64,000 nt of DNA from a virus. Its lineage: Duplodnaviria; Caudoviricetes. Shown here piece by piece: positions 6,848-60,030 of the stretch. The notes below the pieces were generated by a model. The model saw only the letters and a program-made list of their open reading frames with translations, was not told the origin of the DNA and did not search any database. Numbering within the stretch: the stretch's first letter is position 1; the number at the start of each line of letters is the position of its first letter. Position numbers and translations under genes: made by a program. Location: positions 64,001 to 128,000 of IMG/VR virus record IMGVR_UViG_3300001598_001658; one strand, given 5' to 3'.

Positions 6848-7348
6848 AGCAAATGGATGGATGATAAGTTTATCGCATCAAAATCAAAAGCTGTTCGCGA
6901 CTGTATCGGAACAGAATTAAAAAATTTGGGGGCAGAATACCAGAAAATCAAAAAGATTTCTGAACTTCCAGCTTTTATTAAGAAGGTCTATGACTTCGTT
7001 CCATCGGCAAACAAAGCTGAACTTTGTTTAATCAATCTTTTGGATCCGATAATTTCCTACACTGCATCTATGTCTATAACAGATGCAAATGCTGAAAAGG
7101 AATATTTTGATCGTATCAAATTATTCTGTAGTGTTCCAGACGATTGTGAATATGTACTTCCATTCTATTTGACACTTTCAAAGCCAAAATGCATAACATC
7201 TTTCAAAGCCGGAAATGATGCATATGATGATGAAATCGTTGAAGAAGATGATGCCGGTGAAGAAAAGAAAGAAAAAGAAACGGCGGATGTAAAAAAAGAA
7301 AATGATACAGCAACACCGGAGCAGCCTTCAAAAGAAGAATTCAATTAA
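6845..7348 (+). CDS. hypothetical protein with acidic tail (167 aa)
   Basis: ORF with AAGGAGG RBS. Confidence 0.75.
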   Translation: MSKWMDDKFIASKSKAVRDCIGTELKNLGAEYQKIKKISELPAFIKKVYDFVPSANKAELCLINLLDPIISYTASMSITDANAEKEYFDRIKLFCSVPDDCEYVLPFYLTLSKPKCITSFKAGNDAYDDEIVEEDDAGEEKKEKETADVKKENDTATPEQPSKEEFN

Positions 7349-7367
7349 TTCTTTTTAAAACAAAAAT

Positions 7368-7405
7368 AAATAACCACCCACTTTTAAAGTGGGTGGTTAT
7401 TTTTT
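7368..7405. terminator. bidirectional intrinsic terminator
   Basis: AATAACCACCCACTTT / AAAGTGGGTGGTTATT flanked by A and T runs. Confidence 0.8.
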
Positions 7406-7429
7406 ATTAAATTATTTTTTTTAATTTAA

Positions 7430-8695
7430 TTATGAATTGATTGCCTGGCGAGCTGTAGCAACTCTTGCCTTCTGTGTTCCTTTCTTAGGAGCGTTTTTAC
7501 CAGTTGTAACAGCTTTAGCGAGAGCTTTAACTGCAGCAGCTGTATAAGAACGAACTTTAAGATAGTTAGCAAAAAGAGCATAAAGAATACCAGCCAAAAG
7601 AGAACCCAAACGGTTGTTTAAGTTAATCTTCTGAATAGCAGCTCTCTGAGCTTTAACAGCTTTGTTAAGAGATTTGTCTGTTCCAGACATTTTCTTTGTA
7701 GATCCAGAAACTTTCATAGAAGAAGCAAGTTTATCTGCAGTCTTAAGTGTTTCGTTAAGAACTTTGATAAGAGCCTTTCCATCTTTAACGAGATCATTTG
7801 CAGCCTTAAGATCGTCTTTAGAAAGAAGAACCTGCCATTTTCCTACTTTATTGAGATAAGAAAGAGCAGATACTGGAACTTTCTTTGGCTTTTCAACACC
7901 AAAAACAAGAAGGTTAGCCAACTTTGATGCAGTACCAATTTTAACAACATCAAGTTTTTTGCCATAATAAGCCTGAACTTCCATAGCTTTAAAACCTTTT
8001 GTTTCAGATTTAAGTTCATCGCGCTGAATACCTTTATCCTGAAGTTCGATTGCTGCAAGAGCAGATTTATTCATAGCGGCGATCTGCTGACCTCCAGATA
8101 TAATTCCTTTATTCATACCTTCAATAAGAGCTGAACCAGAAGGAATTGCAGCAGGTGGAATAACTGCATTAATCTGTACAGTTGAATCTGTGAATTTTGT
8201 ATTCTTGTATTTATCAACAAGTTTCTGCTGTCCCTTAGCAAACTGTGAACCAACCCAGTTCATAACCTGACGGATCCAGTTAGTAATTGACTGAATAACT
8301 TTTTTGATTGCTGATACAACTGCTGTAAAAGCATTTTTCATTGTATCTGCGAAACCTTCAACACCATATGCGAAAGCATCAAAGCCTTCAACACCATAGT
8401 TCTTCTTAATTTCTGCAGCGATAGCAAAACGATTGTTTGCTGACTGAATCTGCTGTGTAGCATACTGTTCGAGCTGTTTAGCTTCACCAAGAAGTTCATA
8501 TGCTTCATGGCCAAATGTTACTACATCAGTATCATTTCTGTCCTTTAAAGCGCCGAATAATCCAAGCTGATTTGAAAGAGCAAAATCTTTCAAAGAATCA
8601 GTATTGTGATTCATTGCAGCACCGCTCTGGAAATCTTCAATTCCAAAGTCATTTGAGAGAACAGAAGAAATAGTATTTTTATTTAAAGTACCCAT
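7430..8695 (-). CDS. abundant internal head protein precursor (phiKZ inner-head-like architecture)
   Basis: Likely start ATG 8695 after AAGGAG. The propeptide has GIE, GHE, GVE, GVE sites, followed by the amphipathic helix FTAVVSAIKKVIQSITNWIRQVMNW and a Lys/Ala-rich body. Strong codon bias; late motif at 8805-8816. Confidence 0.65.
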   Translation of the reverse strand: MGTLNKNTISSVLSNDFGIEDFQSGAAMNHNTDSLKDFALSNQLGLFGALKDRNDTDVVTFGHEAYELLGEAKQLEQYATQQIQSANNRFAIAAEIKKNYGVEGFDAFAYGVEGFADTMKNAFTAVVSAIKKVIQSITNWIRQVMNWVGSQFAKGQQKLVDKYKNTKFTDSTVQINAVIPPAAIPSGSALIEGMNKGIISGGQQIAAMNKSALAAIELQDKGIQRDELKSETKGFKAMEVQAYYGKKLDVVKIGTASKLANLLVFGVEKPKKVPVSALSYLNKVGKWQVLLSKDDLKAANDLVKDGKALIKVLNETLKTADKLASSMKVSGSTKKMSGTDKSLNKAVKAQRAAIQKINLNNRLGSLLAGILYALFANYLKVRSYTAAAVKALAKAVTTGKNAPKKGTQKARVATARQAINS

Positions 8696-8864
8696 ATTCT
8701 TTTTCTCCTTGATCAAGGTTTGATTAGTAAACCTAATCAATAATCGATTAATTTTATCCAAATACTTGCAGTCGTGGTCATTCTTTTACAAATAAATGAA
8801 TTTATAAATATATGTTATATAGAAAAATATATAAATTTATCGTTTAAAAATTTATACAAATAAA

Positions 8865-8891
8865 GTTACTCCATCAAATCGATGGAGTAAC
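8865..8891 (-). terminator. terminator hairpin
   Basis: GTTACTCCATC / GATGGAGTAAC. Confidence 0.7.
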
Positions 8892-22305: not shown

Positions 22306-25300
22306 TTATAAACCATTAGCAAGTTTATCAAACATGCCTTTGGTTATACTTGTAGAACTACCAGCTGTAGAGAATCCATTATTGTTACTTGCAATAATAG
22401 CTGCCCCAATACCAGCAATTCCAGCCATTAAATTTTTATAGAAAACCTCTTCGATCTGATTATGACGTTTAGTTTCATTTAATAATTCTCTCATTATTTC
22501 TACACCCTCAGAAGCTATATTATATAACTCATCAAATTTAGCAACAACAAGATTAGATGTAACTACGCCACTCTTTTCGGCAAGAGCATTTCCTTTTTCA
22601 TTTAACTTAGAAACGGTTTCTTTTGCTTTATTCTTAACAGTCTTATAACCATTAAGAACAAGTGGATTAGAAATCTTAGCAGGTAATTTCTTGTAATCTA
22701 TATTTGAAATATACTTACTTGCATTTGAAGCTACATTCTTTAAAGTAGATCTGAAATTAATAGCATCTGCTTGTTGTGTTTGTGCAACTGTAGCAGATCC
22801 ACCTACTGGTGTATTAGGTAATTTGAAATTAGGATCTCCTAATTCAAAATGTGGTTTATCTGGCGTTGACCAGTATCCACCCCAATCGATTCCATATTCC
22901 TTTGCAATTGCACCAAGTTTATCATATCCAATATCTCCTGGTTCCAAGTCAACGGCAGAACCATTGAAATGGTTTGAAGCAAGAGTCCAAGTAATATAAT
23001 CACCTGGTTTTTGGAATGATTTTGGCCAGAAATTAATACCATCTTTAAATCCTGCATATTTCATCAATTTGTCTGTTACCCAAGAAGGAGATCTTCCTTT
23101 TGAATAATAAGCTAACTGAGTAGCAGGTGGTCTGTATGATTCACGAATAGAAACACCATGACCTTGAACTCTAGGATCTTTTAAGAATGCTTCGACTCTT
23201 TCGGCAAATACAGGGGAAAGAACCGATGTACTCTTTTGTTGTCCTAAAGCATTTTTATCAACAATATTTTTCTGGAGAGCAATTACATCATTTACTCCGG
23301 TTTCATCATTGAATTTAGAACTTAATTCGAGTTCCATTTGTTTTCGTCTAGTGACAAATTCACCAATGGCATTAGCAGAACCTTTAATTTTACTAAATAT
23401 ATTAGTGGCTCCAGATGCAACATTTTTTGATGCTCCTACTATTTTACTAGCAAGATTAGCTGCACCTTTAGCAAGCTTTCCACCAACAGCTTTGAGACCC
23501 GCTTTAAATCCTTTTTTCTGAGGTTTAATACCATTTCTTACAGCGGTCAATTTATCAAGAGCATTACTCTTAGATTCGTTTAATTTAGCAAGAGTATTCC
23601 ATCCTGCAAAATATTTAGAATCAGTCATCTTTTTAAAATTAATACCGTCTGCTTGAAGTTCGTTTTCTTTATTAGTATCTTTATTGTCTCCAGTAATAGG
23701 TTTAGCTGTACCTTCAGCATTACTTACCGGATTAGGTTTTTCATTATTAGAGACAGATATTTTAGAAGAACCTGAAATATCAGTATTAATTTCATTATCC
23801 ATTTTAGCATCCGGAAGATCAGGTTTAACAACAGTTTCTTCACTCTTAAGGTTTATTCCTTCTTTAGATAATTCCGCTGTACCTTCAGCATTTTCTTTTG
23901 CTAAATTATTTTCATCTGTTTCTTTTTCTACAACAGCTGTTTCTTCATCATGTTTTTTGATTTCATCTTCTTCAGATTTACCTTTGCCTAAAGGACCAAG
24001 ACCAGAGAGTTTATTTTTAGCCATATATGCTTTCGCAGCTTTCAAATATTCTTCTCTGAATTTAGCCTGATTATCTAATGCAGCTACATCATCAGGATTG
24101 ATTTTCTTGTCAACTTTACCACCATTAGCTTTAATCATTTCTTTATACATATCATCCAAAGGTTTATATACTTTCTCAAACCATGTTTTGAAACGTTCTA
24201 TTGCACCTTTATCCTTTTTATCTTTCATAAAGCCAAGTATTGTAGCTCGTTTCTTATCTTGACCAAATACAATTTCAGTCCATGTCATAGTTTCGAATTC
24301 AACAAGTCTTCCATACTCAACTTCCATAATACTTGCACGTTGTTTATCGAACTCTTCAGCTGATTTCATCTGTTCTTTAGTAGCTTTAGAACCAATGATT
24401 CCAAATACTAAATTAGCAATTGCATCAGGTGGAATTAATCCTAATGTTAAATTACCAGATATAGCTTTAGCTAAACCGGCAGTTATTCTCATAGGCCATG
24501 TAGGTTTCATTCCTTTACCCATTTTAAAGTATCTAGGAGCTTCCGCCATACCTGTACCGATATCATAAACTAACTGTGCAACCATTACAGCCCAACCTAC
24601 CCCGTTAGATATTTTAGCACAGAATGCTGTAATCTTACTAGATATTTTAGCTATTAATTTTGCTCCACCTTTAGTTAAGGATTTTTCCATCGATTTGATA
24701 AATGCTTTACTTACAGAATCTGCAGCTGCTTTACCACCAATTTTTGCGACAAGCTTAGGATCTTTAAATAGTTTAGCAACTAAACCTGAGAATTTAGTAA
24801 ATATTGCAGGAAGTTTACTTACACCCTTAGCAAATGTAGCAACATGTACTGCTTGATTTAATCCAAATCCTTTTCCAGCTTTTATATTTTTATCTGTGAT
24901 TTCATTACCATTGTTATCATAATTACCAGAGCCTCCGGCACCAAATAAACCAGAAACTTTTTCTCCAACAGAAGAATTTTTCCAATCTAATTTTGTAGTT
25001 TTAAATTTATTAACAACTTGTTTTCCAAGCATAGCTGCACCTGCGGCAGCTGCACCAATAGTTGCAACGCCACCAGCGGTTTGTATCCCGGCTGCTATTT
25101 TACCACCAGCCGTTCCGAGTTTACTCCACTTAGATAAACTATTACCACCACCATCACCTTTTCCAACAGGCTTATTTTTTATATCCTCAAGTAATTCACC
25201 TTGTTTTTCAGAATTTTGATAATTAGCCATTAACAAACTACCAATATCCGGATTTGGCATAGCTGTTTCTTTTGCAGCAGCAGCTATAGTTTGAGGTGTA

Positions 25301-28300
25301 CCTATTACAGCAGCAATGGAAGCAATATTATGTGCTAAATTATGTCTATCTTCTTTTTCTTCTTTAGTTTCTTTATCATTTTTCTGATCCTGATATGATC
25401 CTTCACTAGGAGCAGGTAATGCCAAAGTTCTATTATCCACATTAAGATTTTCTAATGTTCCGGAGAGTCTATCACCTATAGATTTTTTATCCCCAGCAGC
25501 AGCTTTTAAAGTTGCTTTTGGTGTTTTAGATACTTTAGATTTACTTTTATTTTCTTTACTCTTTATTTTTGTTACATCGGTTATTTTACCATTTTCATTT
25601 ATTTCTTGTTCAATGGCTTTTAATTCTTTGTAAGAATAAATCTCAAGAATATCATCTTCTGACATATTGAGCCGTGTAGTTAAATCACATCTATTAATTA
25701 TATCTAATCCTTGTTTCTTATGGCGTCGTTTTACTCCACTTAAAGATCTTTTATTATCTTTTGAAGATTTTTTATTATCGACTTTCTCAATTTTGATTCC
25801 GCCAATTTCATATACAGCATCTCGTACTTCTTCAATTTTTTCAATAATTTTTTTAACTGATTTAGAAGATATTTTTCCACCAGTTATTAAATTACCTGTA
25901 GATTTTATAACACCTTTTCCGAAATCGAGCGCATGAGATACTAAACCTTTGGTTTTATCTTTTATATCAAGTCCTTTTTCTTTAGCTAAATTAAGTAATT
26001 CTTCTCTAGATAAATTTTCTATTTTTTCTCTAGGTATTTCTAATTTTTTACTTATTTCATCTTTTAAAGTTTCTAAATCAGCTTTCTTACCAAACAAGAT
26101 ATCTTTACTTTTTGAAATAACTTTGCCTGTAAGAGTAGTAGCTGTTTTATCCCCCAAACCAATTGCGTCAAGTGCACTATTTACAAGACCATTGGTTTTA
26201 TTTGTTGTTTCGATACCATTCTCTTTAGCTAAATTAATCAAATCATCATGAGATAATTGTTTTAATTTTTTCAAACTAATTTTTGTTTTATCATGTATCT
26301 TTTCTATCAGTGTATCGTCATCGATATCAGTCGTTTTACCAAATAAGAATTCATTGCCTTTAGTTAAAATATTTCCTGTTAATCCACTTACGCCTTTTAA
26401 GCCTTTTTCAGCAAAATCTTTGACGTGTGTTAAAATTCCTTTTTCACGATCATTAACATCAATACCATTTTCTTTAGCCAATTTAATTAAATCATCATAC
26501 GACATTTCGTTCAATTCGCTTTTACTAATTTTCAATTTTTTACTTAATTGTTCAACGATTGGTTTGGTATCAACTATTTTCTTTTTACCAAACAAAATAT
26601 CTTTTCCTTTTCCAATAGTTCCAGATATAAGATTTTTACCTTTAGTAATTAAAGATTTTTCTTTTCTAATATCTTTAATCATCTTGATTATTTGTTCTTT
26701 ACTATATTTTTTACGAATATTTTCAATAGACATTCCAAGTCTTTCTTCAAGACCATATTTGATGATAAGATTCTCAACACTTTCTTTAGTCAAATCAAAT
26801 TTATCCTTAATAAAATCAACACCTTTTTTGCCAGCATTGAGTGTACCTTTGCCTATATTTTTAGCTAAATCCAAACCTTTATCGAGAGTTGTAGCTGCAA
26901 ATCCAAATACTTTTCCTGCCATATCTTTAGCTGTAGATCCTATTTTTCCAAAAAGACCAGATCCAACTACTCCAGGAATACCAATACCAAAACCTATTTT
27001 TTCAGTATTATCAGCAATTCGATTTGTATTATTGTATATAGCCATTAAGATATCTTTATTAGTTTTAAATTCAACGTTTGCTTTTCTAGAATCTGTTTTA
27101 TTTTCATCTTTTTTATGATTAAATAATTTATCAATTATAGATTCAAAGAAGTTATTAGAATCTTTACCATTGAAGAATTCATATTCGCGATCAACTCTTT
27201 CTTTTAATTTATTGAAGTTTTTAGGCAATTTAACTTCACCAGATGCAACGCTTCCAGCAGGATCGCTTTGGAAGAATGAGAGAGGCTTGCCTGTTATAAC
27301 TTCTTTATATTCATTATTTGTAGTATATGTACCATCTTCATTTTTAACAGCATTATCATATTTATGATCAAAATAATAAGATTTTTCATCACTGAGAGTT
27401 TTAACTTTATGTGATTTCATAAAATCTTTCTTTTCCTGTTCTATTTGACCAAGTAACGATTCGTCTGTTATTTTTTTATTTTCATTCCATCTTTCATCAA
27501 ATTCAAAATGTGGTTGGTCATTTTTACCAGCCCATTTAATACCATATTTAGCAGCAATAGAAGCAATTTTTCCATATTTCATGTTTCCGTTAATAAGATC
27601 AATAGCCCTACCAGTCATATGATTTGAAGAAAGTGTTCTGGCAACAATACCATTTTCTCCCATTGCATTTTTAATGCTTTCAGGGAAATATGTATCGTAA
27701 TCGAGACCAGCATAAAACATCAGCTGTTTTGTTATCTTTGGATCTACGCGACCTTTAGAATATAAAGCAAACTGACGCAATGGAGAACGAATAGAATCTT
27801 TAATTTGAATATTAGCGCCTTGTAATGCAGGATCAGCTAACATTTTATCTAAACGCAATTTAAATTCAGGATCAAGATGTTCCAAATGATCTTGACGATC
27901 TTTGAATTTATATCCTTCATGTGTGCTACTCTTAATTTTATTTGCAAATTCAAAAATAGCACTTTCATCACCAGAACTTAATAAAGCATCTATTTCATCT
28001 TTTGTTTTAGGTTCTTTAATAAAAAGATTACCCGCCGATTTAGGACTATTAATAGCTGCTAAATTTTTATATTTTAAAATTCCGGTATTTCTTGAATTAT
28101 CTTTTGTTTCTTTATTAAAAGATTTTAATTCCGATTTAGATTTATTTAAATTATCTAATAATTCTTTATGTACTTTAGCAATTTCATTTTCTTCATCTGA
28201 TCTTTCATCTTTATTATCTGAAAATAAACGTTTTCCATCTTCAGTATATTTATCAGAATTATCTTTATAAAATTGCTTTAATTTTTCTTCATTCTCTTTT

Positions 28301-31300
28301 ACATTATTATTAAGCTCTTCTCTCTTATCACTAATCTCTTTATTTATTCTTTTATATTCTTTTTTATTTTGACGCGAAATTGATCCATTTTTTGTATCAT
28401 TATCCATTTCATTAAATGAATATTCTTCGTTAACATCAAATGCATGTTTAGTTTTTTCTGTATAATATTCATCTCGATCATTTATATTTTCAATTTCACT
28501 ATTTATTTTAATCCGATTATTATGAAATCTACTATTGTTATCTCTTGCAAGACGATTATTTGATTTTAAATAAGTAGATACTTCATTTATATTTTTATAT
28601 TTTCCATCAATTACTTTAATACCTATATCTTTTATTAATTTTTTATCATCTGAATCCAAATTACCAATTTTACCATAATAAATATCGGTTTCTTCATCTA
28701 ATGAATCGACAATCATACCACCATTTTTAATAATATCTCGAGTTATTAAAAGCTTTGTTTTATCATCTAATGGTTCAAACCATACAGGATCAAGATATAC
28801 ATAAGCTCGTCCGTCGCCGCTTATATTGTTTAAAGTAGTACCTATTTTACTATATAAATCGCTACCCATAATCTGTTGTAAATATGTACCATTCTTTTTT
28901 ATCGATTCTTGTTTATCATATTTTTTCTTAATTTCTTTTTCTCGTTTTTTAGAAACAACAACATCTAATTTTTTAGATCCTTTTTCTGATATATCCTGTA
29001 TACTTTCTACGAGACTAGAAATAGACGATTGTTTTTCTTTTGATTTATTTTTCTTTTTACCAGAAATGGCGTTTTCAACATCTTTAAGCGTATCAACTCT
29101 AAGTGCTTTTCGTTTTTTAGCCTCTTCTAATGCTTCTTTTGTAATATCTTTAGAAACTCCACCATTATTTAAATAATCCTCAGTAGCTTCTTTACCTATA
29201 ATGCCATTCATTAACGATTCAAATGGATTCATTATTGCATTTGCAACATTATCAAATCCGATAAGATATCTCATTTTACCCATCATCGAATCGTCATCTG
29301 CTCCCATAAAATTATAAGAACGTCTGCGTTTTTCATCTTCTTCGGCTATAAGTCTAGAATTTTCAGAATTGCTTTTTCTGAGTTCTATTATATCATTTTC
29401 TTTTTTCTTTTTTTCTTCTTCAGTTTTATCTTTATATTTTTTATAATCCAAAGAAGTAACGCCAAGTTCATTGATTCTTCTATTATAATCTTTTAAATTT
29501 GTCTCAGGTGTTATAGGATAAACCTTTATACCATTTAATAGAAGATCATATATATTGTCAATACTACTTTTGACATTATCAGAAATTGAACCTACACTCG
29601 AATTTATATTTTGTGGTAATAAATCAACTTTTCCTACACGTTCACCATACATCGATTGTTCTGCAAGCAATTTATTTCGTCTAGCTGTCATTTTATTATA
29701 TTCATTTTTACCGGCTAAATCTTCATTATATTTAGATGAATATTGTAAATCGTAATCAATTTTTTCCCACTTTTCTTTTTCTTGCATTTCGGAAATAACA
29801 CTTTTATTTCCGAATTTAACCATAGATTCTTTAAATTGTTTAGATGTACTTTCGATTTCAGATGCAACTTTTAATATACTATTATTGATATCTCTTAAGT
29901 CACCAGGGGATAATGAAGAAATAGATTCTGCGATTAAATCTTTTATAGATTCTGTTTGTTCTCTATCTTCACCAATAGCTTCAAAACCTCTAAACATCTT
30001 ATCTCTATATTCTTTATTTTTAAATAATTCTATAGGATTAAGTTCTATTTTGGATTGGATTAAATTTTCTTTAAATTTATCCATCGCTTTCTGTATTTGT
30101 CTTTCATCAATATCAAAATTAGAATATTTATTATCATTTATTAATTTTCCACCAGTACCTTCTATAATAGACATACCTTTAGAAAATTTAACATTTCCAT
30201 TAATTACATTTTCGCGTATCTGATCATATTTTTCACTAATGCTTTTTTGTGTTTCGAATCTATGTGAATCATAATTATAATATTGAATTTCGCTTCCATT
30301 TAATGCATTTAAAATTTGAGCCAAATATCCAGGTATCGTTTCGGTAATGGTTTCTTTTGTTTTGCCGTCAAAAACTGTTTGTTGATCTAAGTCTGTCGTT
30401 GTAAGATCTATATTTTTATCGATAGCAGTATCCTGACCTAATAAATTTCCCATAAAACTTAAGAAACTATTATCACTATCTTTAAGTCTATTCATTTTAC
30501 TTACAATAGTGCCACCGATATTTCCATATAAATCATTTAATCGGCCTAATTTATTTTTAGTTTCGCTACCCAATAAATTATTGAATACAAAACTTTTAGC
30601 CATACTTCTTCCAATATCTAATGGATTTAATTTAAGTCCAGAATCTTTACCGATCATACCGGCCATACCAGACATCATATCATATGTCTGACCTAACTGC
30701 GTATTGGAAAACATATTCATTGCATTTTCTTTAATTTGTTTAGCATATTTATCCATACTAAATGAACCAATTCCACCAAACAAATTTAAATCTTCATTTT
30801 CTTCTAATTCAGCAAGTTCTTCTTCCGATTTAATACCTATTGCTCTATTATTAGCAGCTAAGATATCTTTTAATAAAGCACGCTGATCTGTTAAAAATGC
30901 TAAAGATTTGCTATCGTATTCGAGTTGAGCATTGATATTAGTTTTTCCATAATGCTCTAAGAAATCAGATAATCCATATATATTATTTGATATATTTGAT
31001 AAGATAGCAATAATATCTTTGAAATTAGAATTATCAATGTGTGTTTTTGTCTCAAAAAGTTTTTTATTATTTGAATTGATAGATGCTGTAGATGTTTCTT
31101 GTAATGCAGCATTTGCAGCTATATCACTTTCATCATTTGATTGATTCACTATGATAAGATTATTTTTGCGTCTAGGTCTTTTATAATTAAAAGACGTAGT
31201 CATTGATCCACTTGTATCTTCTTCTGTGGACTCTCCGACGTTCTCTTCATCATCATCATCCAAAAAAGCATCCATATCAATTTTAATATCTCTATTTGAG

Positions 31301-31734
31301 GTATAAAATTTACCACTTTTGATATTATTTTTTATTTCACCGAAAGCATTTTTAAAAGCACCTTTTGATTCTTCGGCACTTTCTTTGTTTGCTTTGTTAG
31401 ATAAATTGCTTTTAAATGAGCTAAGTCCTTCAAAAACTTTATCTTTCTTTTCAAGAAAAACGTCTTTGGAATCGCCTATAGCAGATTTAATGTCGTCTCC
31501 AAGACTAACAGCTTCTGGTAAAAATTCATCAACGAAATCTACACCAATACCTTTGATTGATTTCATTGTATTTACAAAGAAACCTTTGGCACCGCCAGGA
31601 CCATCTTCATTAGGATCGAATTTGAATCCTGCAAGATCGTCGTCATCATCATAGACAGAATCATCCAGAGGAAACATCTCATCATCGAATTCAAAGTCAT
31701 CATTATCTATATTCATATTACCTTTTTTAGCCAT
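22306..31734 (-). CDS. tape-measure-like tail protein (3142 aa) with two M15-family peptidoglycan peptidase domains
   Basis: Follows sheath and tube. Long helical and Gly/Ala-rich regions. Two R..Q..LY..GR / SxHxxGxAxD / W..DxPHFE domains at about 27500-27890 and 22843-23221. Late motif at 31792-31781. Confidence 0.75.
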   Translation of the reverse strand: MAKKGNMNIDNDDFEFDDEMFPLDDSVYDDDDDLAGFKFDPNEDGPGGAKGFFVNTMKSIKGIGVDFVDEFLPEAVSLGDDIKSAIGDSKDVFLEKKDKVFEGLSSFKSNLSNKANKESAEESKGAFKNAFGEIKNNIKSGKFYTSNRDIKIDMDAFLDDDDEENVGESTEEDTSGSMTTSFNYKRPRRKNNLIIVNQSNDESDIAANAALQETSTASINSNNKKLFETKTHIDNSNFKDIIAILSNISNNIYGLSDFLEHYGKTNINAQLEYDSKSLAFLTDQRALLKDILAANNRAIGIKSEEELAELEENEDLNLFGGIGSFSMDKYAKQIKENAMNMFSNTQLGQTYDMMSGMAGMIGKDSGLKLNPLDIGRSMAKSFVFNNLLGSETKNKLGRLNDLYGNIGGTIVSKMNRLKDSDNSFLSFMGNLLGQDTAIDKNIDLTTTDLDQQTVFDGKTKETITETIPGYLAQILNALNGSEIQYYNYDSHRFETQKSISEKYDQIRENVINGNVKFSKGMSIIEGTGGKLINDNKYSNFDIDERQIQKAMDKFKENLIQSKIELNPIELFKNKEYRDKMFRGFEAIGEDREQTESIKDLIAESISSLSPGDLRDINNSILKVASEIESTSKQFKESMVKFGNKSVISEMQEKEKWEKIDYDLQYSSKYNEDLAGKNEYNKMTARRNKLLAEQSMYGERVGKVDLLPQNINSSVGSISDNVKSSIDNIYDLLLNGIKVYPITPETNLKDYNRRINELGVTSLDYKKYKDKTEEEKKKKENDIIELRKSNSENSRLIAEEDEKRRRSYNFMGADDDSMMGKMRYLIGFDNVANAIMNPFESLMNGIIGKEATEDYLNNGGVSKDITKEALEEAKKRKALRVDTLKDVENAISGKKKNKSKEKQSSISSLVESIQDISEKGSKKLDVVVSKKREKEIKKKYDKQESIKKNGTYLQQIMGSDLYSKIGTTLNNISGDGRAYVYLDPVWFEPLDDKTKLLITRDIIKNGGMIVDSLDEETDIYYGKIGNLDSDDKKLIKDIGIKVIDGKYKNINEVSTYLKSNNRLARDNNSRFHNNRIKINSEIENINDRDEYYTEKTKHAFDVNEEYSFNEMDNDTKNGSISRQNKKEYKRINKEISDKREELNNNVKENEEKLKQFYKDNSDKYTEDGKRLFSDNKDERSDEENEIAKVHKELLDNLNKSKSELKSFNKETKDNSRNTGILKYKNLAAINSPKSAGNLFIKEPKTKDEIDALLSSGDESAIFEFANKIKSSTHEGYKFKDRQDHLEHLDPEFKLRLDKMLADPALQGANIQIKDSIRSPLRQFALYSKGRVDPKITKQLMFYAGLDYDTYFPESIKNAMGENGIVARTLSSNHMTGRAIDLINGNMKYGKIASIAAKYGIKWAGKNDQPHFEFDERWNENKKITDESLLGQIEQEKKDFMKSHKVKTLSDEKSYYFDHKYDNAVKNEDGTYTTNNEYKEVITGKPLSFFQSDPAGSVASGEVKLPKNFNKLKERVDREYEFFNGKDSNNFFESIIDKLFNHKKDENKTDSRKANVEFKTNKDILMAIYNNTNRIADNTEKIGFGIGIPGVVGSGLFGKIGSTAKDMAGKVFGFAATTLDKGLDLAKNIGKGTLNAGKKGVDFIKDKFDLTKESVENLIIKYGLEERLGMSIENIRKKYSKEQIIKMIKDIRKEKSLITKGKNLISGTIGKGKDILFGKKKIVDTKPIVEQLSKKLKISKSELNEMSYDDLIKLAKENGIDVNDREKGILTHVKDFAEKGLKGVSGLTGNILTKGNEFLFGKTTDIDDDTLIEKIHDKTKISLKKLKQLSHDDLINLAKENGIETTNKTNGLVNSALDAIGLGDKTATTLTGKVISKSKDILFGKKADLETLKDEISKKLEIPREKIENLSREELLNLAKEKGLDIKDKTKGLVSHALDFGKGVIKSTGNLITGGKISSKSVKKIIEKIEEVRDAVYEIGGIKIEKVDNKKSSKDNKRSLSGVKRRHKKQGLDIINRCDLTTRLNMSEDDILEIYSYKELKAIEQEINENGKITDVTKIKSKENKSKSKVSKTPKATLKAAAGDKKSIGDRLSGTLENLNVDNRTLALPAPSEGSYQDQKNDKETKEEKEDRHNLAHNIASIAAVIGTPQTIAAAAKETAMPNPDIGSLLMANYQNSEKQGELLEDIKNKPVGKGDGGGNSLSKWSKLGTAGGKIAAGIQTAGGVATIGAAAAGAAMLGKQVVNKFKTTKLDWKNSSVGEKVSGLFGAGGSGNYDNNGNEITDKNIKAGKGFGLNQAVHVATFAKGVSKLPAIFTKFSGLVAKLFKDPKLVAKIGGKAAADSVSKAFIKSMEKSLTKGGAKLIAKISSKITAFCAKISNGVGWAVMVAQLVYDIGTGMAEAPRYFKMGKGMKPTWPMRITAGLAKAISGNLTLGLIPPDAIANLVFGIIGSKATKEQMKSAEEFDKQRASIMEVEYGRLVEFETMTWTEIVFGQDKKRATILGFMKDKKDKGAIERFKTWFEKVYKPLDDMYKEMIKANGGKVDKKINPDDVAALDNQAKFREEYLKAAKAYMAKNKLSGLGPLGKGKSEEDEIKKHDEETAVVEKETDENNLAKENAEGTAELSKEGINLKSEETVVKPDLPDAKMDNEINTDISGSSKISVSNNEKPNPVSNAEGTAKPITGDNKDTNKENELQADGINFKKMTDSKYFAGWNTLAKLNESKSNALDKLTAVRNGIKPQKKGFKAGLKAVGGKLAKGAANLASKIVGASKNVASGATNIFSKIKGSANAIGEFVTRRKQMELELSSKFNDETGVNDVIALQKNIVDKNALGQQKSTSVLSPVFAERVEAFLKDPRVQGHGVSIRESYRPPATQLAYYSKGRSPSWVTDKLMKYAGFKDGINFWPKSFQKPGDYITWTLASNHFNGSAVDLEPGDIGYDKLGAIAKEYGIDWGGYWSTPDKPHFELGDPNFKLPNTPVGGSATVAQTQQADAINFRSTLKNVASNASKYISNIDYKKLPAKISNPLVLNGYKTVKNKAKETVSKLNEKGNALAEKSGVVTSNLVVAKFDELYNIASEGVEIMRELLNETKRHNQIEEVFYKNLMAGIAGIGAAIIASNNNGFSTAGSSTSITKGMFDKLANGL

Positions 31735-57193: not shown

Positions 57194-57955
57194 ATGGAGA
57201 GCGCTATGGTTACGATGAATTTATTATTATTTCATCTAAAAGATGAATTGGGTGAGCCAATTTATAATACACAGAAACCAAGCTTCTACGAAGATATCTT
57301 AAATAAAAAAACTTTATTATTCTGGAGTACATATTTTCCAAAGATTGTAAAAGGAATTGAAATCAAACAAGAAGATGCTATTCCTTTAAAGAATCCTCAA
57401 ACTGGAACTATGTGTACTTCTGGAATGTATAAAGTACCTAAATTTAATCCTAATGACGAATATATAAATTTTGAACAGGTTTTTTATCCTGGAAATTTAA
57501 ATATGAATCAAGCTAGTAGTAATCTACCAGCTTTAAATGGTTTGTTAGGTCAAGTATCCGATTATCTACCAAATTCACAATATTATGGAGTTGATAGATA
57601 CAGTTTTTCTTTTATGGCTCCTGATATTTTAACAATCGATCCTATACCGATGAAACATTTAAATTTCACAGTAAATATGCAAAGACTTGTTAGATTAACA
57701 GAAGTTCCTACATATTATTTCGAACCTTTTAAAAATCTCTTTTTAGCTGATTGTAAAATTTCTTTATATAATAAATATAAACACATCTCTGAAGGTGGTA
57801 CTACTACTTATCAGGGTGTTGAAATTACAACAGAACTTCTTTCTAGTCTTAAAGAAGGAAAAGACGAACGAAAGGAATCGATAGAATTATTTGAAAAGAA
57901 TTACTGGAAAGATGCTAGTAGATTTGGTTCATTTCTTAATTATGATGCACCTTAA
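57194..57955 (+). CDS. putative head-completion / neck protein
   Basis: Co-transcribed with the protease; TL..WSTYFP and FKNLFLADCK patterns loosely resemble neck proteins. Confidence 0.4.
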   Translation: MESAMVTMNLLLFHLKDELGEPIYNTQKPSFYEDILNKKTLLFWSTYFPKIVKGIEIKQEDAIPLKNPQTGTMCTSGMYKVPKFNPNDEYINFEQVFYPGNLNMNQASSNLPALNGLLGQVSDYLPNSQYYGVDRYSFSFMAPDILTIDPIPMKHLNFTVNMQRLVRLTEVPTYYFEPFKNLFLADCKISLYNKYKHISEGGTTTYQGVEITTELLSSLKEGKDERKESIELFEKNYWKDASRFGSFLNYDAP

Positions 57956-57960
57956 AAATA

Positions 57961-57996
57961 AAAAAAAGAAACTCCGGAGATATTCTCCGGAGTTTC
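57961..57996. terminator. terminator ending the minus-strand RNA cluster
   Basis: GAAACTCCGGAGA / TCTCCGGAGTTTC with a long A-run on the left (U-tract on the minus strand). Confidence 0.8.
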
Positions 57997-58000
57997 AAAT

Positions 58001-58460
58001 TTGTCTAGTTCTCGTATAGACACTGATCAATCAGAAATGCAGGCTGTCGAGGAATCTACCTATATGGTAGCCCTTGCAGAAGTTCCGACTTACAATCCAA
58101 AACCAGACGCATTCCTCCTCTTCATTTTCTTATTCGCGATCGAGCCTCACCGCGCTCATAGGAATGCTGATTATTTATTTCTACTCCCTCAAGTATTCTA
58201 TTTTCATAGCTTACTTAATATCTCTGTAGAAACTAACTGAATTCTACTTTCAAATGGATGGACTACGTTCCACTTTACTATTTCGAAGATTCTCAACGCA
58301 TGCGAATTCTGCTACATACGTACATTATCAGCTGTCGCTGAATCTTATAAGGAATAATATAAACATTTGGGTCACTAATTTACTCGCCTCGTATAATTAA
58401 CTCAGATTCATTGCTAATCATATAAAGTTTTCTAAAAGCCTTCTTCTGTTCCCATATTTG
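58001..58460 (-). ncRNA. large structured ncRNA candidate (possibly ROOL/GOLLD-class)
   Basis: No credible ORF, raised GC, many helices (TGAATCT/AGATTCA, GTAGAA/TTCTAC, GCATTCCT/AGGAATGC, CTACC/GGTAG, TGTCTA/TAGACA); downstream of tRNAs. Confidence 0.55.
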
Positions 58461-58494
58461 TCATTAAAATTAGATAAAGATAAAAATCGATATA

Positions 58495-58845
58495 AATATC
58501 AACGTTCATCTCTAGTCCGTCTAATTAATACTTGTCCGACATCAACAGAAGTATCGATGTCCTTAATCATAAAGTGCTTACCCAATGGCATCACATTCCT
58601 TATGATAAGACTATTTGACGACAATAGCGCTGTTTCGAGCATGGTGCACTCCACCACAATCCATTCGAGTTGAAACAATTTAAAAATCATCTCTTTTAAC
58701 ACATCTCGTGATCTCGTTGTTTTCAGAGAATTGCTCGTTTCTCTATTACACCTTTTTACCACTTGATTCTTATGAACAGTCCAACGAACATAAGCAGGAC
58801 AACTATTGTGTGTAATACAAATCCCATCTAGCAGTGCCAGATGAT
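58495..58845 (-). ncRNA. structured ncRNA candidate (separate RNA or 5' domain of the preceding one)
   Basis: Helices CATCTGGC/GCTAGATG, TATTACAC/GTGTAATA, CTTATG/CATAAG, AGAGAA/TTCTCT, ATCATAAGG/CTTTATGAT, GACATCGATA/TGTTGATGTC. Confidence 0.55.
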
Positions 58846-58848
58846 TAG

Positions 58849-58919
58849 CTCGGCCAGCAGGATTTGAACCCGCGAATTCGGCACCAAAAGCCGATGGCAT
58901 ACCGCTTACCGACAGCCGA
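58849..58919 (-). tRNA. tRNA-Gln (UUG)
   Basis: Cloverleaf with anticodon arm TCGGC-TTTTGGT-GCCGA and T-arm GCGGG-TTCAAAT-CCTGC; no encoded CCA. Confidence 0.9.
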
Positions 58920-58932
58920 AAAAATAAAAAGC

Positions 58933-59015
58933 GAAGAGATAGCCGTTAAAAGAAGTCTACATCGTTTATTGCCTCCAAGAGCGTAACTACTCCTGTGTTT
59001 AATAACTATCTCTTC
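58933..59015 (-). ncRNA. stem-closed small RNA candidate (83 nt)
   Basis: Terminal stem GAAGAGATAG/CTATCTCTTC extendable with G-U pairs on the minus strand. Confidence 0.55.
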
Positions 59016-59034
59016 TAGCAGCAACGCTGCCTAT

Positions 59035-59158
59035 CGGCCACTGTACGAATTGAACGCACACTTTTATATGCAAACAGGGCTTAAAGATTACAACAGATAC
59101 AGTAGAAGTATCTCTCTTAGTTTGCACATAATGTAGCTACCATTACTACCAAAAGGCC
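59035..59158 (-). ncRNA. tRNA-like RNA with a greatly extended anticodon arm (124 nt)
   Basis: Acceptor GGCCTTT/AGTGGCC, D-arm GTAG-TAATGGTAG-CTAC and T-arm GTGCG-TTCAATT-CGTAC; a 68-nt arm replaces the 17-nt anticodon arm. Confidence 0.75.
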
Positions 59159-59170
59159 AAAAATAAAATA

Positions 59171-59243
59171 TGAATCGGATAACCGGAAAATCAAAACCAA
59201 ATTTATATAGGAGTCTAAATGACAAAGTTAGCTATCCGATTCA
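59171..59243 (-). ncRNA. stem-closed small RNA candidate (73 nt)
   Basis: Terminal stem TGAATCGGATA/TATCCGATTCA, extended by 3 pairs on the minus strand; U-rich loop. Confidence 0.55.
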
Positions 59244-59247
59244 AATA

Positions 59248-59320
59248 TGGGCCACCTAGGATTTGAACCTAGGACCAAAGGATTATGAGTCCCCTGCTCT
59301 AACCACTGAGCTAGTGGCCC
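59248..59320 (-). tRNA. tRNA-Ile2 (CAU, lysidine-type); Met not fully excluded
   Basis: GGGCCACTAGCTCAGTGGTTAGAGCAGGGGACTCATAATCC... closely resembles bacterial ileX-type tRNAs. Confidence 0.85.
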
Positions 59321-59325
59321 AAGAA

Positions 59326-59450
59326 ATGACAGCCTTGACATATTGTCTTCATCTGTCTGTAACCCCCGGAAAAGCGACACGATCGCATATACATCGAATG
59401 CATATTGGTTATTCCTAGTTCTTGTATACATCCACGTGCAATCATGTCAT
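59326..59450 (-). ncRNA. multi-branched small RNA candidate (125 nt)
   Basis: Closing stem ATGACA/TGTCAT; inner hairpins ATATGCAT/ATGTATAT and GCGA/TCGC within GGAA/TTCC. Confidence 0.45.
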
Positions 59451-59502
59451 ATACTACTATGCTCCAAATTCTTTTGAAGAGATTTATGTTGCATCGCATA
59501 GA

Positions 59503-59589
59503 TGCCGAGAACCAGACTTGAACTGGCACGCTGTTTGCACAGCAAGGGATTTTAAGTCCCTGGTGTCTACCAAATTCCACCATCTCGGC
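59503..59589 (-). tRNA. tRNA-Leu (UAA)
   Basis: Class II cloverleaf with anticodon arm AGGGA-CTTAAAA-TCCCT and long variable arm GCTGT-GCAA-ACAGC. Confidence 0.95.
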
Positions 59590-59606
59590 TCAATTTTATT
59601 TTTTAA

Positions 59607-59650
59607 ATAAAAGGACAAGGAACACAGGAGGTTATGCGTATTCCTTGCCC
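59607..59650 (-). terminator. terminator-like hairpin with a 12-nt loop after the HU-like gene
   Basis: GGGCAAGGAATAC-GCATAACCTCCT-GTGTTCCTTGTCC-TTTTATTT on the minus strand. Confidence 0.65.
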
Positions 59651-59682
59651 AAAGGAGTATTTAATGGAATGTTAGAAGATCA

Positions 59683-60030
59683 TTATTTGATTTCTTTTCT
59701 TTCACATTTAAAACCAGTATTGGCGATTGCGACGAATTCCTGACGTGGTGTCATATGAACACCAATTGATGCAGATACTTCGTATTTGCGGCCCTTTTCA
59801 TCTGTTTCTGTGTGAGCACCGAGATGCTTAAGTACAGTTGCACAGTGTGGATTTTTGATAACCAGTACATCATTTTCTTTAAGGTTTGGGGCTTCTTCTT
59901 TTGCAATGTCATCAGTGACTTTATTGAGCGCATTCAATACTTCCTGAGATGTGCTCTTAGGAATACCACAGTCTTTTTCAATTCTTTCATTAACCGAAGT
60001 CCAGTTAATTGTCTTTACATTTTCAGCCAT
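59683..60030 (-). CDS. HU/IHF-like DNA-binding protein
   Basis: ERIEKDCGIPKSTSQEVLNAL helices, beta-arm AHTETDEKGRKYEVSA and terminal HMTPRQEFVAIAN; GAGGAGG RBS. Confidence 0.65.
   Translation of the reverse strand: MAENVKTINWTSVNERIEKDCGIPKSTSQEVLNALNKVTDDIAKEEAPNLKENDVLVIKNPHCATVLKHLGAHTETDEKGRKYEVSASIGVHMTPRQEFVAIANTGFKCERKEIK

Follow-up and report, generated by a model that had tools for sequence, protein, structure and literature searches.

A likely accessory cassette of tRNAs and conserved structured RNAs in an uncultivated jumbo phage

We analysed a window of 64,000 nucleotides (nt) of viral DNA (Duplodnaviria; Caudoviricetes; IMG/VR virus record IMGVR_UViG_3300001598_001658, positions 64,001 to 128,000 of that record) and report here on a region of 1.7 kilobases (kb) in which tRNA genes alternate with structured RNAs on the minus strand. 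We think it likely that an uncultivated jumbo phage has here an accessory cassette of non-coding RNA, made up of tRNAs and conserved structured RNAs, for which we infer co-transcription and processing. Judged from the comparison of related loci, the cassette is home to at least three conserved structured RNAs, namely a multi-domain RNA of about 850 nt, hereafter called the large RNA, and two smaller ones, M3 and M4.

The region covers positions 57956-59682 of the window and comprises 1727 bases without a credible open reading frame (ORF). It lies between two conserved, convergent genes. On the plus strand this is a virion gene of 253 amino acids (aa; 57194-57955); on the minus strand, and upstream of the RNA cluster, it is a 115-aa gene (59683-60030). 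The source contig is 145 kb long, an estimated half or so of a jumbo-phage genome; the genome is AT-rich and encodes a phiKZ-type S80 head protease just upstream of the cluster. All minus-strand ORFs of more than 60 aa in the region start within tRNAs and have no Pfam or PHROG matches, and the homologous loci described below have no ORF in common within the cassette. G+C content is 0.36-0.45 in the cluster versus about 0.27 in the flanks, the minus strand has an excess of G over C, and in all segments of the cluster the minus strand folds far better than the plus strand. The original prediction, made from the window alone, had described a 1.7-kb minus-strand cluster of non-coding RNAs favoured on that strand by G-U pairs. 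Both statements held up: ARAGORN and Rfam confirmed the tRNAs, no credible gene was found, the order of elements was accurate, and the helices of the large RNA contain G-U pairs.

Homologues of the 253-aa protein (47-82% identity) gave access to relatives, in all about 30 loci, which come from assemblies of gut and rumen samples. Between the same two genes, these loci have a gap that measures 45-66 nt and is free of tRNAs in L005, L006, L008-10 and L190, 421 nt with a tRNA-Arg in L015, 491 nt with a tRNA-Leu in L017, and 994 nt with tRNA-Leu and tRNA-Gln in L020. It reaches 1.4-2.8 kb in L022, L003, L011, L029, L026, L028 and the window, which carry up to three tRNAs in sets that vary by locus. 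Because the gap runs from 45-66 nt to 2.8 kb between the same two genes, the cassette is an optional, modular accessory insertion. It is limited to a sub-clade in which the flanking protein is at least about 69% identical, and its content turns over fast: blastn of the window against most relatives returned the tRNAs and a few short patches, with longer weak matches (about 66% identity over 250-300 nt) between the large RNA of the window and those of L028 and L029. In a blastn search of 50,697 phage records the tRNAs were the sole matches. Neither single-protein searches of IMG/VR with the two flanking proteins nor a profile search turned up relatives, and two IMG/VR DNA-pattern scans built from conserved blocks gave chance or coding matches only; L182, the sole pattern locus with both motifs, was rejected as a primase-helicase gene. 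A scan of a genome collection returned solely a cassette-less relative, on a contig binned in a metagenome-assembled genome (MAG) of the Anaeroplasmataceae.

The large RNA extends over about 57998-58847 on the minus strand and was recognised by conserved landmarks and covariation. There is one such RNA in each of the seven distinct long cassettes, with lengths of 525-886 nt and the smallest member (525 nt) in L011. Six of these RNAs begin 3-6 nt past tRNA-Gln, and an additional hairpin stands at the 5' end in the window and L026. The landmarks GGAUU, UGGUAA, an AUACUU...AAGUAU hairpin, block A, helix Pm and the 3' domain each occur once and in the same order in all seven. Block A (58440-58466, minus strand; UAAUGACAAAUAUGGGAACAGAAGAAG) has the family consensus UAAYG..rAAUAYrrG(3-4 nt)GAAGAAr and is found once in every homologue. 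The distance from UGGUAA to block A varies between 87 and 364 nt, and that from block A to helix Pc of the 3' domain is steady at 255-299 nt. Helix Pm (58380-58428, minus strand), in which ACUUUAUAUGAUUAG pairs with UUAAUUAUACGAGG, was predicted by RNAalifold from a plain MAFFT alignment, and 7 of its 14 pairs are compensated on both sides. In the terminal hairpin, the nine-base loop UACGAGAAC is invariant and the stem differs in almost every lineage. The 5' hairpin of the window is lineage-specific (58824-58844, minus strand): its stem of 9 base pairs (bp) stands between tRNA-Gln and the conserved GGAUUU start, it is missing in L003, L022 and L028, and L026 has a different insert at that spot. 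A helix joining the 5' GGAUUU with the segment just before block A is a tentative proposal; a brute-force search for long-range pairing between the 5' and 3' parts was too noisy to interpret.

The strand of the large RNA was assigned as minus because of the G-U pairs in its helices, and the computed fold energies are -219 kcal/mol for the minus strand versus -156 kcal/mol for the plus strand. We also considered that the sequence might encode a protein and rejected this reading, as the longest open frames vary in strand and frame among the homologues. Substitutions between an 80%-identical pair are spread evenly over the three codon phases (43/41/56) with no period-3 bias, and insertions and deletions are 1-4 nt long.

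Covariation was assessed in the conserved 3' domain (58002-58170, minus strand). We built a covariance model, R1, which has 150 positions and 27 pairs and derives from a trimmed six-sequence seed; plain MAFFT misaligned L011 and shifted some helix strands, and L011 was left out of the seed and recovered by the model. R1 scored the window at 85 bits (E 5e-18) and gave exactly one full-length match in each of 12 loci (E 1e-12 to 2e-35), among them L011-L014, which lie outside the seed (E about 1e-13). It had no match in the cassette-less or short-cassette loci, a single match in the whole contig, and none in the Anaeroplasmataceae MAG or in 151 genomes of its order, these being the genomes searched. 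Standard pairing occupied 90.6% of the cells, as compared with 66.5% in column shuffles (0 of 500 as high), and dropped to 33-47% when partners were slid by 1-3 columns. Changes on both sides were seen in 18 of the 27 pairs, versus 2-6 after sliding. Since the R1 alignment is fitted to the model, unfitted MAFFT alignments were checked as well, and on these RNAalifold independently recovered helices Pc (58161-58167 with 58109-58115), Pd (58102-58106 with 58023-58027) and Pe, the hairpin that carries the invariant loop (58002-58022). It further added three pairs between the loop of the Pa hairpin (58136-58153) and the purine-rich strand at 58116-58135, in which CUC:GAG of the window is replaced by CAU:AUG in L003 and L022. 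These three pairs covary and make up a candidate pseudoknot. In the Pd hairpin, the window lineage alone has a 54-nt expansion (58039-58092), which appears as gap columns in the six other homologues. The ornate RNA of about 850 nt that the original prediction had placed here is borne out in this way, conserved with covariation in seven distinct homologues, and the comparison of homologous loci for covariation was one of the checks proposed with it. As a separate observation, the motif GAAAUGAUCAAGUAG lies in an extra hairpin between Pa and the purine-rich strand in the 3' domains of L003, L022 and L026 and recurs just downstream of the terminal hairpin in L026 (gap position about 1775-1800).

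Another proposed check was a cmscan against Rfam. With the 4227 families of Rfam 15 at the gathering score, only tRNA passed in the window and in six homologue loci. GOLLD and ROOL, two families of large phage RNAs, had no match at E<=10 with permissive filters in the window, L011, L022, L026 or L029, and the other matches at E<=10 in the window and these four homologue loci were weak, chance-like and far below gathering scores. No other Rfam 15 model passed, those of group I and group II introns, tmRNA, RNase P RNA, 6S, Y-RNA-like and HEARO/omega RNAs included. Membership of GOLLD or ROOL fails because the covariance models give no match. On these search results, the large RNA belongs to a family that is not in Rfam and appears to be new.

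Few non-coding RNAs of bacteria and phages are as large as GOLLD and ROOL, which have recently been shown to form RNA-only nanocages. GOLLD is a non-coding RNA of more than 800 nt from phages and prophages, often found beside tRNA islands (10.1101/2024.12.08.627333; PMC5737381), and it is better conserved in the 3' region than in the 5' region (10.1101/2024.12.08.627333). The large RNA resembles it in its phage location beside tRNAs and in a conserved 3' and variable 5' part, which are shared properties and no proof of membership. It differs from GOLLD in giving no match to the GOLLD covariance model, in having its own conserved blocks (the UACGAGAAC loop, block A and UGGUAA) and in its known range, a single sub-clade of jumbo phages from gut or rumen. 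ROOL (Rumen-Originating, Ornate, Large) is about 580 nt long and has multistem junctions and pseudoknots; it comes from rumen or gut, occurs in phages and prophages near tRNAs and is possibly co-transcribed with them (PMC5737381). In contrast to ROOL, the RNA described here has no Rfam match, a length of 525-886 nt, a hypervariable 5' section and so far one candidate pseudoknot.

The tRNA-like RNA M3 lies at 59034-59158 on the minus strand. Its minimum-energy structure is a cloverleaf (fold z -3.7, versus -1.0 on the plus strand) in which an acceptor stem is joined by a D arm (GUAGUAAUGGUAGCUAC) and by a T arm of sequence GUGCG-UUCAAUU-CGUAC, whose loop has 7 nt. The anticodon arm is replaced by a 12-bp stem and a further hairpin, and a standard 7-nt anticodon loop is not in its usual place. 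Homologues are present in L011, L028, L029 and L003; among them the D arm is almost letter-identical, the long arm is hypervariable in length and sequence, and the acceptor stays paired, as GGCC/GGCC in some and GGUU/AACC in others. Rfam tRNA (RF00005) did not report M3 at E<=10 and ARAGORN did not call it, although the acceptor, D and T arms of a cloverleaf are all there. An intron-containing tRNA was considered and rejected: ARAGORN gave no call with introns of up to 120 nt. From its sequence and predicted fold, M3 reads as a tRNA-derived RNA that would have kept the parts seen by processing enzymes and lost decoding. A tRNA-like element with an extended anticodon arm is thus found where a tRNA-like RNA had been anticipated.

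M4, which had been described as an 83-nt stem-closed RNA, proved to be a structured RNA of about 100 nt (58931-59033, minus strand; fold z -3.8) with conservation in relatives. It consists of a hairpin, H1, a closing stem of 10-12 bp, H2, an inner hairpin with the loop GUUACG, and the conserved sequence GGAGGCAAUAAAC. Its homologues in L011, L026, L028 and L003 always begin 2-4 nt past the 3' end of a tRNA or tRNA-like element, and the pairing of H1 and H2 is preserved despite different sequences.

The tRNAs themselves were called by ARAGORN and by Rfam covariance models, in agreement with each other, and none of the three has an encoded CCA. tRNA-Leu(UAA) (59503-59589, minus strand; Rfam tRNA 51.6 bits) stands at the head of most cassettes among the relatives. 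The second tRNA, with anticodon CAU (59247-59321, minus strand; 71.3 bits), may be either an elongator Met or a lysidine-type Ile2 tRNA from its sequence; it is not an initiator because of its G1-C72 pair, and its pairs C4-G69 and C5-G68 would fit a TilS substrate. Of the seven distinct long cassettes, six have tRNA-Gln(UUG) (58848-58919, minus strand; 50 bits) immediately before the large RNA, an order found in L003, L011, L026, L028 and L029 as well as in the window; L022 has a degraded tRNA-like remnant there. The phage uses TTA for 40% of Leu, CAA for 46% of Gln and ATA for 18% of Ile codons, and the three tRNAs, reading UUA, AUA or AUG, and CAA, fit this AT-rich codon use. Two further observations concern tRNAs elsewhere. 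In L022 (1799-1875, minus strand; also in L023, L024 and L025) a tRNA after the large RNA has an unusual anticodon loop, for which ARAGORN offers two readings, a loop of 8 nt with the four-base anticodon UUAA or a tRNA-Asn(GUU) interrupted by a 3-nt intron; the Rfam tRNA score is 49 bits. A second tRNA pair lies outside the window on the plus strand, at contig positions 34366-34438 and 34658-34730, with scores of 70.8 and 71.6 bits and about 290 nt between them.

In bacteria, RNase P matures tRNAs at their 5' ends and, in Bacillota-type hosts, RNase Z does so at CCA-less 3' ends. In the cassette, the structured RNAs abut tRNA ends and the tRNAs are CCA-less, so that the layout would let RNase P and RNase Z release the interleaved RNAs, in line with the punctuating role that the original prediction had given to the tRNAs. 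In L003, L011, L022, L028 and L029 the large RNA stops close to the following tRNA or tRNA-like element, with 0-8 nt between its last hairpin and that element. The course of events that we propose would begin with minus-strand transcription of the cluster, started at an internal promoter or reading through from the 115-aa gene; host RNase P would cut at every tRNA or tRNA-like 5' end and RNase Z at every CCA-less 3' end, and each interleaved RNA would come free as a discrete, stable molecule. The extent of the large RNA would then be from just past tRNA-Gln to the terminator at the end of the cluster or, in relatives, to the next tRNA. This terminator, correctly placed by the original prediction, is a bidirectional intrinsic one (57968-57996, both strands) with a 13-bp stem that includes 7 G-C pairs (fold z -6.2 and -8.2 on the two strands) and a T-run on its minus side; it serves both the RNA cluster, on the minus strand, and the convergent 253-aa virion gene, on the plus strand, as their end.

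Arrangements of a similar kind are known. In phage T4, RNAC and RNAD sit in the tRNA gene cluster and are matured together with the tRNAs by RNase P. They are small stable RNAs made during infection beside the tRNAs (PMC9697503). The cassette shares with the T4 region the interleaving of structured non-tRNA RNAs with tRNAs, on one strand and without intervening ORFs; it differs in that its RNAs are unrelated in sequence to those of T4, include an 850-nt species and come from another phage and host. In animal mitochondria, tRNAs punctuate polycistronic transcripts and cleavage by RNase P and RNase Z frees the RNAs that they flank. The products in the phage would be structured non-coding RNAs and not mRNAs or rRNAs as in mitochondria.

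Several points weigh against a single, tRNA-processed cassette. No sigma-70-like promoter was found just upstream of tRNA-Leu, between the cluster and the 115-aa gene stands a strong terminator-like hairpin, and T-runs follow two internal stems (past 59172 and past 58933), which makes more than one transcript possible. The spacer after tRNA-Leu (spacer 1) is neither conserved nor unusually stable. For the large RNA, the seven distinct sequences represent about five lineages and their alignment, A7, is fitted to the model; the 3' domain of the window alone folds no better than shuffles (z -1.3), and the alignment covers the 5' and middle parts incompletely, so that folding as one unit is no more than presumed. 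The conserved RNAs could be real and yet come from several transcription units, independent of one another and each with phage-specific promoters and terminators of its own, tRNA processing having no special role in their release; the conserved ACUCCUAUAUAAA motif could be an internal promoter in such an arrangement. This would accommodate the hairpin and T-run that precede tRNA-Leu, the T-rich tails that follow the hairpin at 59172-59242 and the closing stem of M4, and a 30-nt motif that is internal in the window and upstream of tRNA-Leu in L026 and L003. However, the motif is missing in L011, L028 and L029, which have the same RNAs, the T-run after M4 is not kept in relatives, and in most lineages the RNAs lie within 0-8 nt of tRNA ends, a proximity that independent units would not need. 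We regard separate units as unlikely, while granting them some weight.

Two other explanations concern the nature of the RNAs. That the large RNA is a very divergent GOLLD or ROOL which the Rfam models do not recognise seems to us very improbable: the niche is the same (phage, beside tRNAs), the length falls in the same range and a conserved 3' domain with a variable 5' part is found in GOLLD as well (10.1101/2024.12.08.627333), but neither the permissive search of the window and the four homologue loci, which span the diversity of the family, nor the gathering-score search of six homologue loci gave a match to either family. We give hardly any credence to the idea that the material between the tRNAs consists of decaying tRNA genes and non-functional filler left by tRNA gain and loss, its structure being a relic. 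Degraded tRNA pieces do occur in L022 and L003 (minihelices of a T arm plus acceptor, and a truncated tRNA), M3 is clearly of tRNA origin, spacer 1 resembles filler, and cassette content changes fast between relatives. Against this, at least six helices of the large RNA, and the stems in M3 and M4 as well, are maintained by compensatory changes, loops and blocks stay invariant where the flanking proteins drop to about 75% identity, and the large RNA is without any resemblance to a tRNA; for the large RNA and M4 the relic explanation is already contradicted. The accessory cassette of tRNAs and conserved structured RNAs is the reading that we retain.

As to what this cassette means, the large RNA appears, on the evidence of its sequence, to be a new family of a kind already known, that of large phage RNAs adjacent to tRNAs. 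The claim of an undescribed system stands insofar as the RNA families appear new, and not for the kind of system, for which T4 RNAC/RNAD, GOLLD and ROOL are precedents. Reasoning by analogy, the large RNA probably works in the infected cell as a free RNA with a high degree of structure. A bolder and rather doubtful proposal is that the 525-886-nt RNA is a third independent "ornate" class of phage RNA, specific to jumbo phages and cut from a tRNA precursor, which might form an RNA-only particle or engage the translation or tRNA machinery, with M3 and M4 as partners (decoys or cargo). An unrelated large RNA in the same niche suggests that combining a large structured RNA with a tRNA island is a recurring phage strategy, and the cassette offers an independent system for asking what large phage RNAs do. 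Its natural series, from empty sites to cassettes of 2.8 kb and with the 525-nt RNA of L011 as smallest member, is handy for structural and deletion studies. More generally, kilobase-sized "gene deserts" of jumbo phages can hide several conserved RNA genes that annotation and Rfam miss.

The remaining elements of the region are smaller. The original prediction had nearly every spacer filled by structured RNA; five of the six non-tRNA elements are real structures, four of them with comparative support, and spacer 1 is the one that falls away. This segment (59322-59502, minus strand), taken for a 125-nt branched RNA, folds no better than shuffles (z -0.78) and has no blastn match in relatives; only a short patch of it resembles the closest relative, L026. 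It was not counted as an RNA gene because it is unconserved and folds like shuffled sequence. The first hairpin of the cluster (59613-59650, minus strand; fold z -5.1, versus -0.6 on the plus strand) is followed by a T-run, UUUUAUUU, and all relatives have an analogous hairpin and T-run after a gene of 114-118 aa. It is a real structure, as had been stated, and its sequence context indicates that it is probably an intrinsic terminator or attenuator of the upstream 115-aa gene rather than part of the RNA set.

What had been called a 73-nt stem-closed RNA is confirmed as a stable hairpin (59172-59242, minus strand; z -4.2, with 0 of 200 shuffles as stable), whose stems are GAAUCGGAUAGC and GGUUAUCCGAUUC and which has a T-rich tail. 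Its loop contains the 30-nt motif mentioned above (59185-59214, minus strand), which begins with ACUCCUAUAUAAAUUUGG; exact 13-mer matches to it are confined to the cassettes of the window, L022 and L026, and L003 has a variant. The motif could be a cassette promoter or a processing signal. We tried ACUCCUAUAUAAAU as a general phage promoter and rejected it, as it is not enriched in the window (22 matches versus 21.5 expected). On the plus strand of 59185-59242, the reverse complement of the conserved motif reads AGGAG, a 5-nt spacer and ATG. The 15-codon frame opened there runs antisense to tRNA-CAU and is probably fortuitous, because it is not conserved in L022 or L026.

Some modules occur in the relatives and not in the window. 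L003 (gap 480-707), L011 (gap 633-840) and L028 (gap 795-1020), all on the minus strand, have a common non-coding block of about 200-300 nt with 70-81% identity, which lies between M4 and tRNA-Gln, just upstream of the latter. A further small module is present in L011 (gap about 283-315), L015 (6751-7171), L026 (between tRNA-Leu and tRNA-CAU) and L028. This hairpin has stems that covary (ACAUCAAUCAU/AUGAUUGAUGU, AUCGGUUAU/AUAAUCGAU and GGUAAGUAU/AUACUUGCC) and a loop, CCYCUCCCACCC, that is conserved, rich in C and anti-Shine-Dalgarno-like; the module may be a small regulatory RNA directed at ribosome-binding sites. At the cassette start, L003 (gap 60-97) and L022 (gap 70-101), on the minus strand, carry minihelix-like elements with a T arm (GGUUCGAUUCC) and an acceptor-like stem and without D or anticodon arm, and L022 (gap 452-512) has what looks like a truncated tRNA where others carry tRNA-Gln. 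The more distant L009 and L010, which are without a cassette at the site, each have a separate 1.7-kb gap between a 118-aa and a 104-aa gene (7157-8866 in both), with no called genes, tRNAs or R1 matches. Elsewhere in the window, positions 22306-31734 on the minus strand form one open frame of 3142 aa, among the largest genes of the window.

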